Shown here piece by piece: positions 3,416-9,518 of a stretch of DNA of 64,000 nucleotides; position 1 is the stretch's first letter, and the number at the start of each line of letters is the position of its first letter. The position numbers and the translations under genes were made by a program. Below the pieces are notes generated by a model. That model was given only the letters and a program-made list of their open reading frames with translations, did not search any database and had not been told where the DNA came from. This DNA comes from an uncultured Clostridia bacterium (GTDB lineage Bacteria; Bacillota; Clostridia; Christensenellales; UBA1242): assembly GCA_944349375.1 (NCBI GenBank), contig CALVMV010000004.1, positions 44,178 through 108,177 of the forward strand, written 5' to 3'.

Positions 3416-3501
3416 GCGGAAGTGGCGGAATGGCAGACGCGCAGGTTTCAGGTACCTGTGGTAGAAATACCATGTGAGTTCGACTCTCATCTCCCGCACC
3501 A
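3416..3501 (+). tRNA. tRNA-Leu (anticodon CAG), class II with long variable arm, CCA encoded
   Basis: Manual fold. The anticodon stem CAGGT/ACCTG encloses loop TTCAGGT. The long variable arm is TGGTAGAAATACCA, the T-arm is GTGAG-TTCGACT-CTCAT, and the 3' end is ACCA. There is one A-C mismatch in the acceptor stem. Confidence 0.9.
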
Positions 3502-3626
3502 AAACTATTTTGTTTTTTATTTTACAAATTTACTAAAAGAAAAAATATTATAAATACAATTAGTTAAATTATTTAATACATTTATTAAAACTTCGCAAAA
3601 ATACAAGAAAGATAAATGGGAGACTT

Positions 3627-3806
3627 ATGGAATATAGAGTCATAAAAATTAACGAACTTGATAAAGCAAACGAATTGTATCGCTATGTAATAAAATTTTG
3701 TAAAACTTGGGATTGGAACGAAAATTATTCAAGCTTAAAAATGATTGAGGAAGATATCGTAACTACTAAATTTTCATTCTTTATAAAACCGACAGAACCA
3801 ACATAA
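3627..3806 (+). CDS. Small hypothetical protein (59 aa), below the ORF-track cutoff
   Basis: ATG at 3627 preceded by GGGAG. Translation is MEYRVIKINELDKANELYRYVIKFCKTWDWNENYSSLKMIEEDIVTTKFSFFIKPTEPT. No family recognised. Confidence 0.3.
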   Translation: MEYRVIKINELDKANELYRYVIKFCKTWDWNENYSSLKMIEEDIVTTKFSFFIKPTEPT

Positions 3807-3968
3807 TAAACTACGACCAACTTGAAAAAGAACTAATAAAAGATCTTAAAAAACACAACAAATATTAAATCTTAACATTATTTTCTAAATAACTCATACA
3901 ATTATTATTTTACAATAACAATATAACAAAAAATAATATTTAAAAAGTTTGTATTATATATTTAACAT

Positions 3969-5546
3969 TTAAAATTTTTCAACTTCTTCATTATTTTCTA
4001 TAAAATTCTTTTTTTTTAACTCAATTTTTTTTAACCCTTCTTTATCAAGGTTATATACTTCATTACAAATTTCATTGATAAATTTTCTATCATGGGATAC
4101 GGTAATAATGACACCATTAAATTTTTTTAATACCCCTCTTATAATAGGATTAGATAATGGGCTTAAATTTCTAGTTGGCTCATCCAAAACTAAAACATTA
4201 TTTTTTTGAACTATTAATTTGGTTATTAAGATCTTAGCTTTTTGTCCTTCACTTAAATCAGATATTTTATGCTCCATTTCTTCTCTCGTAAATTTTAAGC
4301 ATCCTAACAATGTTCTAGGATTTAATTTTGAATTAGCCTCTTGTAATTCTTCAACTGGTGTTGCAGAATAATTTAAATTTTCACTATAATTTTGAGAAAA
4401 ATACCCTATTTTTAAACCACTTGTATTTTGTAAAACAGGCAAAATTGTTTTTAAAAATGTAGTTTTCCCGCAACCATTATTTCCAGTGATTGCAACTTTT
4501 TGTGGACCAAAAATTTTAAATTCTATATTTTGAGATAACTTTTTTCCACCTACTTTCAATTCTTTTATATTTACATCTATAACTTTCTTTTGATTTGGTA
4601 CTACAATATTTTTATCAACTATTAAATTAATAGCTTCCTCAACTTCAGGAATTTCCGTTAATTCTTCATCTTGTAATTTTTTTTCTTGAGCTTTTATATT
4701 TGCCATTTTTTTTGCAACTATGCGACCATTTGATGGATCCTTTTTAGATGCATTTAATGAATTTTCCACCTTTTGTTTTATTTGTCTTAATATTTCTTCT
4801 TGTTTAGCTTTCTCCCTTCTTTCGTTATAAGCTATTTGCGTTTGTTTCTCAATACCACGTCGTCGAGAGTCAATATATTCGTCATAGCTACATTTCGCTA
4901 AAGTAAACTTCGGTTTAGATTTTTTCATCAATTGTTCTATGTGTAATATTCTGTTTGCACAATTTTCAAGCAAAGTTTCATCATGAGAAATAAAAATAAT
5001 TGGCAACTCTGAACTTTTTATAAAATTTTCTAACCATTCTAAAGTATTTATATCTAAATCATTCGTAGGCTCATCTAAAAGTAAAACTGTTGGATTTTTA
5101 CATAATATTTTTACCATTTGCAATTTTACTTGCTCTCCACCAGAAAGATTTTTTATTAAAGTATTATCTTCGAGTATTTTTTTATCAAGCCCAAATTCTG
5201 TTAATTTTTTTTCTATCTTATCAAAATACTCATAGACCGCATAATCATCTTCTGAAGAGGGATTTTCTTTTAAAAAATAGTCTAAAATAGTAAACGCTCC
5301 CCAATTGTTAGATAGCTTTTGTTCCAAATATCCTAATATTTCACCTCTTGTGTCAATTGTGCCCTGCACATTACAATATGACGAAATAAGATCTTTATCA
5401 TAAATTGCCTTTAACAATGTTGACTTACCATTTCCCTCTTCTCCAATAATTGCAAGCCTATCTTCTTTATTTAATGAAAATGACAAATCTTCAATTAATT
5501 TCCTGCCCTTAATAGTTTCTATAGAAACATTTTGTAACTTTAGCAT
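3969..5546 (-). CDS. ABC-F family ATPase (two ABC cassettes, no transmembrane domain)
   Basis: Walker A GEEGNGKST and GNNGCGKTT, signatures LSGGEQ and LSEGQ, Walker B LLLDEPTNDLD and VLVLDEPTRNL. A charged K/E/Q-rich linker of about 100 aa joins the cassettes. The ATG abuts the stop of the upstream radical SAM gene (TAAATG). Confidence 0.85.
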   Translation of the reverse strand: MLKLQNVSIETIKGRKLIEDLSFSLNKEDRLAIIGEEGNGKSTLLKAIYDKDLISSYCNVQGTIDTRGEILGYLEQKLSNNWGAFTILDYFLKENPSSEDDYAVYEYFDKIEKKLTEFGLDKKILEDNTLIKNLSGGEQVKLQMVKILCKNPTVLLLDEPTNDLDINTLEWLENFIKSSELPIIFISHDETLLENCANRILHIEQLMKKSKPKFTLAKCSYDEYIDSRRRGIEKQTQIAYNERREKAKQEEILRQIKQKVENSLNASKKDPSNGRIVAKKMANIKAQEKKLQDEELTEIPEVEEAINLIVDKNIVVPNQKKVIDVNIKELKVGGKKLSQNIEFKIFGPQKVAITGNNGCGKTTFLKTILPVLQNTSGLKIGYFSQNYSENLNYSATPVEELQEANSKLNPRTLLGCLKFTREEMEHKISDLSEGQKAKILITKLIVQKNNVLVLDEPTRNLSPLSNPIIRGVLKKFNGVIITVSHDRKFINEICNEVYNLDKEGLKKIELKKKNFIENNEEVEKF

Positions 5547-6902
5547 TTACACCTCCAATTTTGATATTAATTGTTGGATTCTTTTTTTAATAATTTTTTT
5601 ACATTCATTATTTTTATAAATATTACGATCTATATTTTCAATTATATTTTTTCTAATACGAGGACACAGTCCTTGGCAATATTTTATATATTTACAAGAA
5701 AAACATTTTGAGTTATTTACATTCATTAAAGACATATTTTCAACAAAATCCAAGGTAATATCTGAATTGTCATAGGGGTCACAATTATTATTTAATCTTT
5801 CTTGAATAGTCCCAATTTTAAAATTTTCATCAAATACATTATTCCAACATCTATACAAATTGCCATTGCTATCTAAAACAATATCTTTTGTTAAACTTTC
5901 TGCTATACAAAATGTATTTAAATTTGAAACCATTAGATTTGCATTAACCAATTTTTGTTTGTAACAAATATCAAAAAGTTCTTCACGATATTTTTCATAT
6001 TCAAACAAATTAAAAGAATTTATCGAACCAAAAACTCTAGCTATATCAACAAATATGTATTGTCCAAAATATTTTTTTTCTAACAAATTTGTAATTTTTT
6101 CTAAAAATTGCTTTATACTTTGATAATTTTGTTTATCTACATTTAATCTAATTACAATTTTTATTTTATTTTCTGCACATTTATTAATATTATAAATTAT
6201 TTTATCAAATGTATTAATTTTACATTTATTTGTTCTTCGTGAATTATGGAACTCTTTTTCACCATCTATGGTAATTTGAATAAAATCACAATCTTCAAAC
6301 TGTAAATGCTTTATGAAATCTCCGTCAATTAAATAACCATTCGAAATAATATTAAAATGAAACTTTATATTCTTTTCAACGCATAAATTTTTAACTTTTT
6401 CATTAAATTTTATTATAAAATTTTTTTCTAAAGTTGGTTCTCCACCATAATAAACAATTTTTAAATCTTTAACATAATCTAAAGTAACTTTATCTATATA
6501 CTGGTATAAATATTCCGATGTTTTTATTAAATTTGAAGAACAATTTTCTTTTTTATTGAGATTTTCCCTTTCGAAACAATAAGGGCAGCAAAAGTTGCAT
6601 AAGTTTGTTATTGCAAAATCTATTTTTACACTTTCTTTTTCTGATGAGTATTTAGAAATATTATAAGTCAACTTATTTCTATTTTTTATTTCTTCATCAA
6701 AATTTGATTCAACTAAAAATTCTTGATCAATTAAAACAGCTATTTCATCTTCCGAAAATATTGCTATATCTTTGTTTTTTTTAAATAATATAATTTTTTT
6801 ATAACTTTCTAAATCTAAAACAATCAACGAACCATTATTTGTATTAAAGAGGAACTTTTTATTATTAATATTAAAAATCTCACAATAATTTGTTAATTCC
6901 AT
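5547..6902 (-). CDS. Radical SAM/SPASM-domain peptide maturase
   Basis: CNFCCPYC (CxxxCxxC) cluster plus C-terminal Cys-rich SPASM-like motifs (CFSCKYIKYCQGLCP, NECKK). Start set to the ATG at 6902 (MELTNYCEIF), which follows AGGAGTG. The longer track start at 6944 would run through a hairpin. Confidence 0.85.
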   Translation of the reverse strand: MELTNYCEIFNINNKKFLFNTNNGSLIVLDLESYKKIILFKKNKDIAIFSEDEIAVLIDQEFLVESNFDEEIKNRNKLTYNISKYSSEKESVKIDFAITNLCNFCCPYCFERENLNKKENCSSNLIKTSEYLYQYIDKVTLDYVKDLKIVYYGGEPTLEKNFIIKFNEKVKNLCVEKNIKFHFNIISNGYLIDGDFIKHLQFEDCDFIQITIDGEKEFHNSRRTNKCKINTFDKIIYNINKCAENKIKIVIRLNVDKQNYQSIKQFLEKITNLLEKKYFGQYIFVDIARVFGSINSFNLFEYEKYREELFDICYKQKLVNANLMVSNLNTFCIAESLTKDIVLDSNGNLYRCWNNVFDENFKIGTIQERLNNNCDPYDNSDITLDFVENMSLMNVNNSKCFSCKYIKYCQGLCPRIRKNIIENIDRNIYKNNECKKIIKKRIQQLISKLEV

Positions 6903-6921
6903 TTGCACTCCTATAAAATAA

Positions 6922-6946
6922 AGATGAGATAATATATATCTCATCT
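6922..6946 (-). promoter_or_regulatory. Intercistronic stem-loop between the precursor peptide and maturase genes
   Basis: Perfect 9-bp stem AGATGAGAT/ATCTCATCT with a 7-nt loop. On the transcribed strand it is followed by TTATTTTAT and then the maturase RBS. Confidence 0.4.
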
Positions 6947-6958
6947 AAATATCATGAC

Positions 6959-7051
6959 TTAACATCCACCATAATGAGAGCAAGGTCCACAAAGAAATTG
7001 TTTAGTAGATACTTCCTTCACTGATTTTTGTTTTTTTAAAACTACTTTCAT
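6959..7051 (-). CDS. Putative RiPP precursor peptide (30 aa): MKVVLKKQKSVKEVSTKQFLCGPCSHYGGC
   Basis: Not in the ORF track because it is too short. The ATG at 7051 is preceded by AGGAGGGAGAAA. A Lys-rich leader is followed by a C-terminal 10-residue core with 3 Cys. It lies directly upstream of the rSAM/SPASM gene. Confidence 0.6.
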   Translation of the reverse strand: MKVVLKKQKSVKEVSTKQFLCGPCSHYGGC

Positions 7052-7082
7052 TTTCTCCCTCCTTTATTAGAATTTTATCATA

Positions 7083-7664
7083 TTATATGTTATTTGTCAA
7101 CAAAAAAGATACAAGTTCTTTTTTTGTAATTTTTACATCCATATTTGACAAAATTAATTCTTTTAATATTTCTTTTTGGGTGACGTATAAATACTTAATA
7201 TATAACATTGCTGAATAATAGTAATCAATATTAAACTTAAAATATTTTTTTAATTTATTTAAAGGAATAATATTTATTTTGTTTGCTTTATCCTTTACTA
7301 TATTTCTTGCTAACAGTGTAGCTAATCCTTCAGATAACCATAAATCTATATTTTTATTAATATTATAAAGAATTGCATGTATTATCTCGTGATGCAATAT
7401 TTTACAAAATTCTAAATCAAAGTTTTTGAAAGAATCTTGATTTATGTATATATTGCCATCTTCCATAAACATAATCGCATAATTATTAAAATTTTCATCT
7501 AAACTCTTAATGAATTTTTTACGAGTTATTACAATTATTTTTATACTAATCTCTTTGTTAAAATTAATAATACACTTGATTTGTTTAATTGATAAATCAA
7601 GCAATTTTTTCGCTAATTCATATAACCTTTTGCTTTTATTTCCATTGACAATAATTTTATCCAT
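7083..7664 (-). CDS. Putative zinc metallopeptidase (HExxH...E gluzincin, peptidase-MA-like)
   Basis: HEIIH followed 15 residues later by the E of WLSEGLATLLA. It is the first gene of the operon, 31 nt upstream of the precursor ORF. Confidence 0.55.
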   Translation of the reverse strand: MDKIIVNGNKSKRLYELAKKLLDLSIKQIKCIINFNKEISIKIIVITRKKFIKSLDENFNNYAIMFMEDGNIYINQDSFKNFDLEFCKILHHEIIHAILYNINKNIDLWLSEGLATLLARNIVKDKANKINIIPLNKLKKYFKFNIDYYYSAMLYIKYLYVTQKEILKELILSNMDVKITKKELVSFLLTNNI

Positions 7665-7726
7665 ATTTCAGTCATTATAGCATACTTTGCTGAAATATAC
7701 AAAAATAAAAATAATAATTTATATCC

Positions 7727-7770
7727 TGGTGCACCTGAGAAGATTCGAACTTACGACAAACCCGTCTTAG
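7727..7770 (-). pseudogene. tRNA 3'-end-like fragment (T-arm, acceptor 3' strand, CCA), not a complete tRNA
   Basis: The minus strand reads ...GTAAGTTCGAATCTTCTCAGGTGCACCA. No matching 5' acceptor strand or anticodon stem could be folded from the adjoining sequence. Confidence 0.35.
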
Positions 7771-7818
7771 GCAGAAGAATTATCAAAAGCGTTCTCCCCT
7801 TATGAAAAAGTCTTTTAA

Positions 7819-8145
7819 TTAGGAGAAAAGCTCATCAAATTAAAAGATGAATATTCCAAGTCAGAATACAGCAAGGAAAAAGCTGATGAAATTAGTGATT
7901 TAGAAAAATTTATTGAACAAGAATGCTCAAAATTTGATCCCCAACTATTAATAGATGTGTCAAAATATAGAAAAGAATATTTTGTAAATAAAACAACTGA
8001 AGAGAAGTTATATAAAGATGGCGGTGTAACAATAAACATAACAAACGATATTGAAAATTCACCATATTGTCAAAGTGCCGATCTTATCAATTCTTCAGCT
8101 AATAAACTATTTTTAAAACAACTAGATGAAATTCTTTATAGTTAA
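7819..8145 (+). pseudogene. Open frame of 108 codons without an ATG/GTG/TTG until 7957; possible 5'-truncated gene remnant
   Basis: The frame is open from the TAA at 7816-7818 (LGEKLIKLKDEYSKSEYSKEKADE...). The only start candidate is the GTG at 7957. No family recognised. Confidence 0.3.
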
Positions 8146-8162
8146 ATATTAAAATTGATAAA

Positions 8163-8186
8163 AAAACGCGTTTGTTGACGCGTTTT
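8163..8186. terminator. Bidirectional intrinsic terminator
   Basis: AAAACGCGT (8163-8171) pairs with ACGCGTTTT (8178-8186) around a 6-nt loop. It lies immediately downstream of tilS and of the + strand frame. Confidence 0.6.
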
Positions 8187-9518
8187 TTATTTTTTTACTT
8201 CAATCATGTATGCTGTTGGCACATTATCAACTCTTGCTTTTTCAGAAATTTCAACTCCTGCTATCGCATACACTTCATTTCCATCTGCTAAAACTGGTAA
8301 GAGATTTCTTTGTCTAAGTGGTATTTTTTTGTCTATTAAATATGATTTAAGTTTCTTTGTTCCACCACCAAACTTTTCAAAAACATCTCCATCTTTTCTA
8401 AATCTCCAAATTGCTGTTTTAGGAACTTTTCTATAATCTAAGAATAGCACTCCATCTTTAGGTTCAAAATCTTTAACTCTTTTTGTTATAACTTTCCCAA
8501 ATCCCTCGACATCAAATTCGCCACACTTAAAAGGCTCGTTCAAAACCATTTCTTCTTTATTTTTGTTAGTAATAGAAATATAGTAGTACTCTTTAACTGC
8601 TGTAGCATTAAATGGCAAGGATACTTTTTTCCCATTCTCTAAGTTTTGTGCTAGATCCAAAATCATGTCAAAATGCTTTCTTTCAATATCCTTTGTTATA
8701 CCAATAGATTTGAATGCTTTAAAAAGTATTCTTGTTATAATTGGTCTATCATACAAAAAGTAACTTGTTGGTATTTTTACTTCATCGCCTTCAATTATAA
8801 TTGCATCATCATAAATGTTTTTGTTGATATATTCATCATCTTCACTTACAGCTTGCCCAAAAGATGCTATTGACTTTATAGCATTTGGCCACCTAGTCAA
8901 AACATTTTTCATAATAACATTTCTAACAAAATTTCGGTTATAAGTTATATCGACATTAGTTTCATCTTCTCTATAATCAAGGTTGTTTTCATCAAGATAT
9001 TGCAAAATTTCTTCTTTTGATGTTGTTAGCATAGGCCTTATGTAAACATTATCTCTTATAGGTTCCATTCCTTTTGCCCCTGCGACACCACTACCTCTAA
9101 AAATATGCATTAATATTGTTTCTGCCTGATCTTGCATATGATGAGCAAGTGCAATTTTGTCAACAACTCCCTTTTTTAATAATGTTTTGAACACGCCATA
9201 TCTGGCATCTCTTGCAGCAGTTTCAATACTTACATTTTTTTCTTTAGCTATTTTAGGTGCATCAACTCTAAACTTATAGAACCTAATCCCAAGTTCTTTT
9301 GCTTTTTCTTTTGCAAAATCAGCATCTATATAACTATTTTCTCTAATGCCATGGTCGATATGAATTGCAACAACTTCAATATCAAGTTTTTGCATATTAT
9401 TTGCTAAATAGTGTAAAAGAGCCATAGAATCACTACCACCGCTAAATCCTACGCCTATAACATCTCCTGCCGAAATCATATTTGTTTTTTGTATAAATTT
9501 TTCAATACTTTCAAGCAT
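8187..9518 (-). CDS. tilS: tRNA(Ile)-lysidine synthetase
   Basis: PP-loop motif SGGSDSMALL near the N-terminus. The 443-aa length and TilS-type C-terminal domain fit. Confidence 0.9.
   Translation of the reverse strand: MLESIEKFIQKTNMISAGDVIGVGFSGGSDSMALLHYLANNMQKLDIEVVAIHIDHGIRENSYIDADFAKEKAKELGIRFYKFRVDAPKIAKEKNVSIETAARDARYGVFKTLLKKGVVDKIALAHHMQDQAETILMHIFRGSGVAGAKGMEPIRDNVYIRPMLTTSKEEILQYLDENNLDYREDETNVDITYNRNFVRNVIMKNVLTRWPNAIKSIASFGQAVSEDDEYINKNIYDDAIIIEGDEVKIPTSYFLYDRPIITRILFKAFKSIGITKDIERKHFDMILDLAQNLENGKKVSLPFNATAVKEYYYISITNKNKEEMVLNEPFKCGEFDVEGFGKVITKRVKDFEPKDGVLFLDYRKVPKTAIWRFRKDGDVFEKFGGGTKKLKSYLIDKKIPLRQRNLLPVLADGNEVYAIAGVEISEKARVDNVPTAYMIEVKK

Follow-up and report, generated by a model that had tools for sequence, protein, structure and literature searches.

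Introduction

Ribosome protection by ABC-F proteins is a major and still growing cause of resistance to drugs that act at the peptidyl-transferase centre (PTC). In the resistance-type members of this ATP-binding cassette (ABC) superfamily, a hairpin between the two nucleotide-binding domains (NBDs) reaches the drug site and sets specificity. To our knowledge, natural ABC-F ligands outside the actinomycete antibiotics are largely unknown. This study concerns an ABC-F gene from an uncultured Clostridia bacterium, which directly follows genes for a short precursor of a ribosomally made, post-translationally modified peptide (RiPP) and for a radical S-adenosylmethionine (rSAM)/SPASM peptide maturase. 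The three genes lie in a 64,000-nucleotide stretch of contig CALVMV010000004.1 (positions 44,178 to 108,177), referred to as the window, to which all coordinates of the locus refer. A preliminary description of this stretch had suggested that the ABC-F provides target-protection immunity against a ribosome-directed peptide. The comparative analysis reported here makes such immunity the best reading of the locus, with a rough probability of 0.45.

Among described proteins, the best match in both sequence and fold is VmlR/VmlR2 (PDB 6ha8, 8buu), an ABC-F of the antibiotic-resistance (ARE) type from Bacilli. Like VmlR2, the window ABC-F is soluble, with two cassettes and a long helical hairpin, and the leader design of vmlR, with a tripeptide-encoding upstream open reading frame (uORF) and a terminator, is common to standalone relatives of the window ABC-F. 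Unlike VmlR and VmlR2, the window ABC-F, which shares 27% identity with its match, has no leader of its own and is coupled to an rSAM maturase.

Producer self-resistance ABC-Fs (OleB, CarA, SrmB, TlrC, LmrC, VarM, and Ard1) are likewise encoded within the cluster of a compound and are expected to protect or signal at the ribosome of the producer (PMC8546547; PMC10201436). Their clusters are actinomycete clusters for macrolides, lincosamides, streptogramins, and nucleosides, whereas that in the window encodes a ribosomal peptide, and the window ABC-F scored 149 bits against the producer ABC-F model NF000171 (cut-off 800). The housekeeping proteins EttA, Uup, YbiT, and YheS share the superfamily fold and, presumably, binding to the ribosomal E site. 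However, they fall in separate clades, their linker is 25-28 aa shorter than that of the window ABC-F, their Walker A-Walker B distance in NBD1 is about 20-25 aa longer (136-144 aa, versus 119 aa in the window protein), and the distribution of the window gene is that of an accessory gene.

Two further groups resemble the locus rather than the ABC-F. ABC exporters of rSAM clusters occupy the slot right after a homologous maturase and a precursor with a CGPCSHxG(G/P)C core, but have 4-6 transmembrane (TM) segments and one cassette, whereas the window ABC-F has no TM segment and two cassettes. Thioether-forming rSAM/SPASM systems (CteB/CteA, the PapB ranthipeptides, Clo7bot, and CefB) have the same type of maturase and a short, Cys-rich precursor, while the window maturase scores far below the cut-offs of their models (TIGR04463, 165 versus 525; PapB, 88 versus 340). 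We know of no such system described with an ABC-F, and a literature search found no published account of an ABC-F within a radical-SAM peptide cluster.

Conserved coupling of the ABC-F to a peptide maturase

The preliminary description had placed the maturase stop codon directly against the ABC-F start codon, and the ribosome-binding site (RBS) of the ABC-F inside the end of the maturase gene. The coordinates were exactly as first noted: on the minus strand, the sequence TAAATG joins the maturase stop codon (TAA, 5549-5547) to the ABC-F start codon (ATG, 5546-5544), and a GGAGG motif was found within the 3' end of the maturase gene (Table 1).

Relatives of the maturase were drawn from a collection of 5.8 billion proteins. 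The family comprised approximately 22 clusters at 45-58% identity and approximately 10 at 35-40%, after which identity dropped to 31% or less. The CxxxCxxC motif and the SPASM cysteines were invariant in 27 homologues, and matches to the NCBIfam models TIGR04463, CefB, FlmE, and Clo7bot were all far under the respective cut-offs. At each readable locus of a 45-58% identical maturase, a precursor gene was followed by the maturase and then by an ABC-F with 57-64% identity to that of the window. This arrangement was read directly in six loci (the window, L004/L005, L007, L008, L106, and L107; L numbers designate loci). The maturase and ABC-F genes overlapped by 7 nt in L004/L005, by 17 nt in L007, by 4 nt in L008, and by 17 nt in L107, in which the ABC-F is cut by the contig end, and were separated by a 1-nt gap in L106. 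Since overlap or abutment recurred at every related locus read, the coupling is conserved rather than a chance juxtaposition. The precursors of L004, L007, L008, L106, and L107 had the core STKQ(F/Y)LCGPC(S/A)HYGGC in common with that of the window. Genes flanking the module varied by locus (yhhN and an iron-dependent alcohol dehydrogenase gene, tuf, rsmD, degV, rpoBC) and, because they differed in every case, the three genes move, or are kept, as a unit. In L007, the maturase homologue (6995-8377, CAYSOX010000008.1) was split into ORFs of 135 and 319 aa, probably by a frameshift or an assembly error, while its precursor and ABC-F were intact.

Seven more pairs of maturase and ABC-F are probably linked, as judged from a longest contig of the same size for both proteins; the source matched in all five pairs that were checked. 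In one case, a contig of 3,443 nt must accommodate genes for an ABC-F of 516 aa and a maturase of 457 aa. Eighty loci whose rSAM/SPASM enzymes are distant (22-34% identity) and fall outside the family of the window maturase served as a background control. None of these 80 loci encoded a tandem-cassette ABC-F; 16 had single-cassette ABC matches only, as expected of ordinary transporter ATPases. Whether homologous rSAM clusters also carry an ABC-F, a question raised in the preliminary description, was therefore answered for all homologues of at least 45% identity with readable context: each carried one, translationally coupled. Conserved co-location and coupling with the precursor and the maturase are as for a cluster-encoded RiPP self-immunity gene.

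Classification of the ABC-F protein

Pfam detected two ABC_tran stretches in the protein, and Walker A, Walker B, signature, and H-loop motifs were present in both cassettes. The Walker A lysines (K41 and K361), the Walker B acidic pairs (D158-E159 and D455-E456), and the H-loop histidines (H188 and H485) were intact and invariant in 69 relatives. The peak 19-residue Kyte-Doolittle mean was 0.88, with no segment above 1.6, which indicated that no TM segment is present. Pfam, motifs, and hydropathy thus agreed with the two complete cassettes and the absence of a transmembrane domain noted earlier. The linker, put at about 100 aa in the preliminary description, spans about residues 206-320 between the NBDs, or approximately 115 aa. 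An AlphaFold2 model (pLDDT 88.7, pTM 0.82) placed two linker helices at residues 221-269 and 271-292.

A Foldseek comparison of this model with the PDB ranked VmlR2 (8buu) first (E 2e-34, TM-score 0.69), and the top 26 matches belonged to the ABC-F family throughout, most of them solved on ribosomes. Ranking of PDB entries by sequence also placed VmlR2 first (168 bits), followed by Uup, VgaL, Sal(B), and VgaA-LC. In an alignment, the window hairpin was approximately 14 residues shorter than that of VmlR2. The helical hairpin linker, the ABC-F fold matches, and the lack of a transmembrane domain identify the protein as an ABC-F rather than an exporter, as had been proposed, and all features tested were those of the ABC-F superfamily.

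Linker length was gauged by the number of residues that separate the H-loop of NBD1 from the Walker A motif of NBD2. This number was 168 aa in the window ABC-F and 158-175 aa in the rest of its family, versus 140, 142, 143, and 142 aa in E. coli EttA, Uup, YbiT, and YheS, respectively. Values for the resistance proteins OptrA, PoxtA, and Msr(A) were 142, 151, and 175 aa. The window ABC-F thus has the added linker length that is characteristic of resistance-type ABC-Fs.

The top NCBIfam model was NF000355 (ribosomal protection-like), which matched with 315 bits in a single stretch that covered positions 3-498 of its 499. Scores for other resistance models were lower (Vga 230, Sal 225, CplR 211, Msr 210, Lsa 167, OptrA 159, and TlrC/CarA/OleB/SrmB 149 bits). 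Housekeeping models stayed below their cut-offs (Uup, 212 versus 900; EttA, 177 versus 599; PRK15064, an ABC-F family ATPase, 202 versus 762). By cut-offs and by tree placement, the protein lies outside every named resistance or housekeeping ABC-F subfamily.

Phylogeny and distribution

Phylogenetic trees were built with FastTree (148 rows) and with IQ-TREE under LG+C20 (69 rows). Ten references were taken from annotated records: E. coli EttA, Uup, YbiT, and YheS, together with OptrA, PoxtA, Msr(A), Msr(E), Lsa(E), and a staphylococcal ABC-F. Bacillus subtilis VmlR, YdiF, YfmM, and YfmR were not among the tree rows, so that the link to VmlR is one of PDB sequence and fold ranking and of leader architecture. 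The window ABC-F and all homologues down to approximately 40% identity formed one clade with 100% support and a long stem, separate from every reference, that is, from Msr, Lsa, OptrA, and PoxtA as well as from EttA, Uup, YbiT, and YheS. The ABC-F phylogeny called for in the preliminary description thus placed the protein in a separate, fully supported family and with none of these four housekeeping proteins. Within the family, all linked ABC-Fs (those encoded with a maturase) fell in a single subclade with 100% support in both trees, which made up 52 of the 137 family rows of the large tree.

The assembly that contains the window is approximately 0.94 Mb and 80% complete; genomes of the genus are 0.8-1.0 Mb. 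The ABC-F was not found in any of five same-genus genomes or of two same-family genomes of other genera (all 99-100% complete). Searches of further genomes gave homologues in 3 of 150 from the order, at 42-44% identity, and in 15 of 398 from the class, at 41-47%. All 18 of these homologues fell outside the linked subclade, with no maturase within 1.5 kb, and the maturase was not detected in any of the 150 further genomes from the order. The genome encodes one other ABC-F (G000:C6:24226-25737, L002, 546 aa), which grouped with E. coli YbiT with 100% support, and the lineage thus seems to manage with one housekeeping ABC-F. A housekeeping ABC-F with the same neighbours in genomes that lack the RiPP genes, which would have contradicted the original proposal, was not seen: no copy was present in the seven close genomes, and copies were rare in the order and class. 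The window ABC-F is an accessory gene and not a housekeeping gene.

GC content was 0.20-0.28 over positions 3500-7750, versus 0.30-0.35 in the flanks. This low-GC stretch is bounded on one side by a tRNA-Leu(CAG) gene and on the other by a degenerate tRNA-like fragment beside tilS. In same-genus genomes, tilS was followed by other genes and a tRNA-Leu or tRNA-Ser, and no sign of the module was seen there. Synteny beyond tilS was not conserved and the limits of the module are approximate. Horizontal acquisition of the module is the simplest reading. The fragment at 7727-7770 was also considered as the displaced end of the same-genus tRNA-Ser(TGA) near tilS; this was rejected because the sequences do not match. 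Beside the fragment, between tilS and the module, lies a startless ORF (7830-8145, plus strand).

Constraint on the inter-domain hairpin

Across 12 linked proteins, identity over the hairpin (residues 248-286) was 86%, versus 61% over the NBDs (ratio 1.42). The corresponding values were 56% versus 58% (ratio 0.96) in standalone members of the subclade and 46% versus 49% (ratio 0.95) in the wider family. The hairpin is thus selectively constrained in linked genes. A specific relationship between protein and ligand would be expected to leave such a pattern, a constant hairpin beside a near-invariant peptide core. Of three lineages that would have lost the peptide genes (see below), two had a diverged hairpin and L003 keeps the linked-type hairpin.

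The subclade also differed in NBD2. All 52 members had the signature LSEGQ and the Q-loop GYFSQ, versus LSGGQ (88%) and GYMPQ (94-95%) in the wider family. In the window, these changes correspond to the codon for E433 (4247-4249) and those for F383-S384 (4395-4400). VmlR2 departs at the same NBD2 signature position (LSLGE). The LSEGQ and GYFSQ changes may reflect an asymmetric ATP site.

Standalone relatives and their leaders

Five members of the linked subclade (L003, L006, L135, L136, and L137) stood alone, without peptide genes. The closest of these to the window protein (L003, 70% identity) followed rpsF-ssb-rpsR-rpmE. The L003 gene (9987-11264) lay between rpmE and a tyrosine integrase gene with PemK/helix-turn-helix genes, a position that suggests the edge of another integrated element. 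The L006 gene was found between an AP endonuclease gene and polA, and L135 and L137 shared a syntenic dnaJ...rpmB-asp23-fakA context. On the tree, the five represented at least three separate lineages. One basal gain, followed by three or more losses of the peptide genes, is the most economical history.

A simple scan of 23 standalone loci of the family identified, in at least 10, a Shine-Dalgarno (SD) sequence and a uORF of 3-7 codons, followed by a terminator. In these leaders, the SD sequence and uORF came first and the ABC-F gene last, with a terminator hairpin and its U-run between them, 20-150 nt ahead of the SD of the ABC-F; a consensus-like promoter was located 5' of the leader in 5 of 11 standalone loci inspected. 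The uORFs encoded MNK (L118, L113), MRK (L011), MIL (L111, L112, L115, L117), MINR (L122), MIE (L116), and MPIKQ (L137). Ahead of one standalone subclade member (L135, 4731-5003), a textbook attenuator consisted of a perfect sigma-70 promoter (TTGACA-17-TATAAT), a 23-codon uORF, an AT-rich terminator (CTTATGA-N7-TCATAAG plus U-run), an 8-codon uORF, and the SD of the ABC-F. In the experimentally characterized vmlR leader, a uORF that encodes MIN (natural variants MDN, MDK, and MRK) is followed by a terminator, and induction is by drugs that stall initiating ribosomes (PMC9226507).

A VmlR-type leader with a short uORF and an intrinsic terminator was not found at the window ABC-F, as its start codon abuts the maturase stop codon. 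In the six linked loci read, the ABC-F genes have lost the leader and are coupled in translation to the maturase instead.

Sister clusters with exporters

Sister maturases with 36-40% identity to that of the window were accompanied by precursors with the same core, in the variant CGPCSHLG(G/P)C, as seen in L103-L105. The clusters, found in Tepiditoga spiralis, Finegoldia magna, and two metagenome contigs, encoded no ABC-F; the slot of the ABC-F was occupied by ABC exporters (4-6 TM segments, one cassette each), which often overlapped the maturase stop codon. ABC exporters are the usual export and immunity genes of such clusters. The same core combined with either an exporter or an ABC-F in the same slot indicates that the peptide family has two branches, one with an exporter and one with an ABC-F. 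They also differed in the position of the core, which was at or at most 2 residues from the C-terminus in ABC-F-linked precursors, versus tails of 3 to 7 residues in exporter-linked ones. One exporter-type cluster, L105, encoded two tandem precursors (5658-5879) with cores CCGPCSHLGGC and SCGPCSHLGGC. Upstream in L105 (1-5208), genes were present for an S8 peptidase and for another pair of proteins with ABC cassettes (matches to ABC_tran only).

Proposed function and alternative explanations

The comparisons show that the protein is of the ABC-F class, with a linker of ARE-like length, an accessory distribution, conserved coupling to the peptide genes, a constrained hairpin, and an alternation of exporter and ABC-F in the same slot. 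They favour target-protection immunity against a ribosome-directed peptide. Ribosome binding by the ABC-F, a ribosomal target of the peptide, and protection of the producer are each predicted from these comparisons. In the proposed scheme, a small operon acquired by horizontal transfer would have come to include, as its fixed third gene, an ARE-type soluble ABC-F coupled in translation to the maturase. The maturase would cross-link the invariant CGPCSHYGGC core of the precursor, and the binding site of the mature peptide would lie on the large ribosomal subunit, near the PTC or the tunnel entrance. Made in step with the maturase, the ATP-bound ABC-F would move into the E site of ribosomes that have stalled, push its long inter-domain hairpin towards the PTC, dislodge the peptide, and leave after ATP hydrolysis. 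The producer would thereby be protected from its own product. Standalone copies in the subclade might then be orphan immunity genes or leftovers after loss of the peptide genes, and the exporter branch would solve the same problem of self-protection by efflux.

Several observations weigh against this scheme. The standalone subclade members, found without peptide genes, show that the ABC-F clearly has a function without the peptide, and the synteny of L135 and L137 looks like stable chromosomal inheritance. The score for NF000355 did not reach the curated cut-off of 380 bits, all cut-offs of named ARE subfamilies (680-1450 bits) were missed, and identity to plasmid-borne ABC-Fs, including OptrA, PoxtA, Msr(A), Msr(E), Lsa(B), and Lsa(E), was at most 29%. 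For the seven additional pairs, linkage was deduced from contig sizes and not from sequence that was read. Co-divergence of the rSAM enzymes and the ABC-Fs was modest (Mantel r 0.43, reached by 196 of 5000 permutations), a result attributed to star-like divergences. The module encodes no exporter, which leaves the exit route of a secreted antibiotic unexplained, and we know of no RiPP of this peptide family with a known target.

In one alternative, the ABC-F would be an ordinary resistance protein that acts against PTC drugs from outside (of the lincosamide, streptogramin A, or pleuromutilin type), carried as a passenger of the island and co-expressed with peptide genes to whose target it is unrelated. 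Islands often carry resistance genes, the wider family is standalone and sporadic, with vmlR-like tripeptide-uORF attenuators, and the five standalone copies lie within the linked subclade itself. A drug-resistance gene would, however, gain nothing from being tied to peptide production, yet at all six linked loci read the drug-sensing leader was missing and the start codon lay in or against the maturase stop codon, with different flanking genes. The hairpin constraint, far stronger in linked copies than in unlinked ones, and the lack of an ABC-F in the 80 other rSAM/SPASM loci, also count against a passenger, and we consider this explanation unlikely.

The position of the core at the end of ABC-F-linked precursors would fit a role as a helper or sensor in the operon, in which the ABC-F rescues ribosomes stalled on the Cys/Gly/Pro-rich end of the precursor or, in the manner of LmrC, converts ribosome stalling into a signal by which more transcripts would read through the hairpin that separates precursor and maturase. 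Housekeeping ABC-Fs resolve sequence-specific stalls, and the intergenic hairpin is terminator-like. LmrC is a signalling ARE ABC-F within a biosynthetic cluster (PMC8546547). However, sister clusters with nearly the same core do without an ABC-F, the ABC-F is translated last, after the genes that it should help, and standalone copies persist without a precursor. A helper or sensor role is on balance improbable.

The exact correspondence of the ABC-F slot with that of the exporters in sister clusters, and the lack of another export gene in the module, could alternatively mean that the ABC-F stands in for an exporter ATPase and energises peptide export together with an unlinked membrane protein. 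An efflux role was once proposed for Msr and Vga proteins. That model was abandoned for ARE ABC-Fs in favour of ribosome protection, and the window protein has no transmembrane domain, a complete ABC-F architecture with a long hairpin, and ribosome-bound ABC-Fs as its nearest folds. Moreover, it is nested among standalone ABC-Fs and not derived from the cassettes of the exporters, which makes a role in export highly improbable.

A housekeeping translation factor of the lineage, located downstream of the peptide genes by accident, would be in keeping with the presence of only two ABC-Fs in a small genome and with relatives that adjoin ribosomal-protein or chaperone genes, but was rejected on distribution (not found in the seven close genomes, rare in the order and class), on its separation from EttA, Uup, YbiT, and YheS, and on the presence of a YbiT-type paralogue that fills this role.

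Under target-protection immunity, a resistance-type ABC-F in a ribosomal-peptide operon offers a concrete candidate for a natural ABC-F ligand, as well as a simple rule for genome mining: where an ABC-F is coupled to a peptide maturase, it would be indicative of a peptide that targets the ribosome. More tentatively, CGPCxHxGGC peptides might form a new class of modified, ribosome-targeting peptides from gut anaerobes, one branch of which swapped its exporter for an ABC-F with a peptide-tuned, near-frozen hairpin, while non-producers keep orphan immunity genes. If target-protection immunity were confirmed, the gut microbiota would be the source of a chemically new class of translation inhibitors, the scatter of related 'orphan' ABC-Fs through gut Firmicutes would be explained, and a natural system would be at hand for the matching of an ABC-F hairpin to its ligand. 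A peptide that inhibits translation would be both surprising and useful; its present basis is comparative. Should the ABC-F be a helper or a passenger instead, it would still have to be explained why the coupling is conserved and the hairpin frozen.

Organization of the locus

Coordinates of the genes and other features are listed in Table 1. A promoter-like site 5' of the precursor gene and a U-tailed hairpin before the maturase gene suggest that the minimal transcription unit probably consists of the precursor, maturase, and ABC-F genes.

Table 1. Features of the precursor-maturase-ABC-F locus and its borders, in window coordinates. ARD, antibiotic resistance domain; PtIM, P-site tRNA interaction motif.
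Feature	Position	Strand	Characteristics
ABC-F ATPase gene (P0001), 525 aa	3969..5546	-	Two NBDs, no transmembrane domain; based on ORF, Pfam, NCBIfam, model, and Foldseek
NBD1, residues 1-205	4932..5546	-	Walker A GEEGNGKST, signature LSGGE, Walker B LLLLDEPT, H-loop SHD
Inter-domain helical hairpin (ARD/PtIM equivalent), residues 221-292	4671..4886	-	Tip KKD-PSNG (268-274); AlphaFold2
NBD2, residues 321-510	4017..4586	-	Walker A GNNGCGKT, signature LSEGQ (Glu subclade-specific), Walker B VLVLDEPT, H-loop SHD
ABC-F Shine-Dalgarno sequence GGAGG	5552..5556	-	Within 3' end of maturase ORF, 5 nt ahead of ATG
Radical SAM/SPASM peptide maturase gene (P0002)	5547..6944	-	Likely true start Met15 at 6902
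Hairpin and U-rich run between precursor and maturase genes	6922..6946	-	Terminator-like; 10 pairs counted by scan
Precursor peptide gene, 30 codons, MKVVLKKQKSVKEVSTKQFLCGPCSHYGGC	6959..7051	-	Strong RBS
Promoter-like site TTGACA-17-TAAAAT with TG extension	7072..7100	-	Immediately 5' of precursor gene; 11/12 matches, consensus match only
HExxH protein gene, 193 aa	7083..7664	-	Optional accessory gene; ORF, library matches
tRNA-Leu(CAG) gene	3416..3501	+	Lower edge of low-GC stretch
Degenerate fragment like tRNA 3' end	7727..7770	-	Upper edge of low-GC stretch

The HExxH protein is a putative leader peptidase. Weak homologues were encoded 5' of the precursor in L007 and L106 only, and none was present in L008. 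An unrelated protein of 188 aa, not a homologue of the HExxH protein, was encoded in L004. A further ORF of 59 codons (3627-3806, plus strand), which has an RBS and may be a gene fragment, is located between the tRNA-Leu gene and the point where the ABC-F gene ends.

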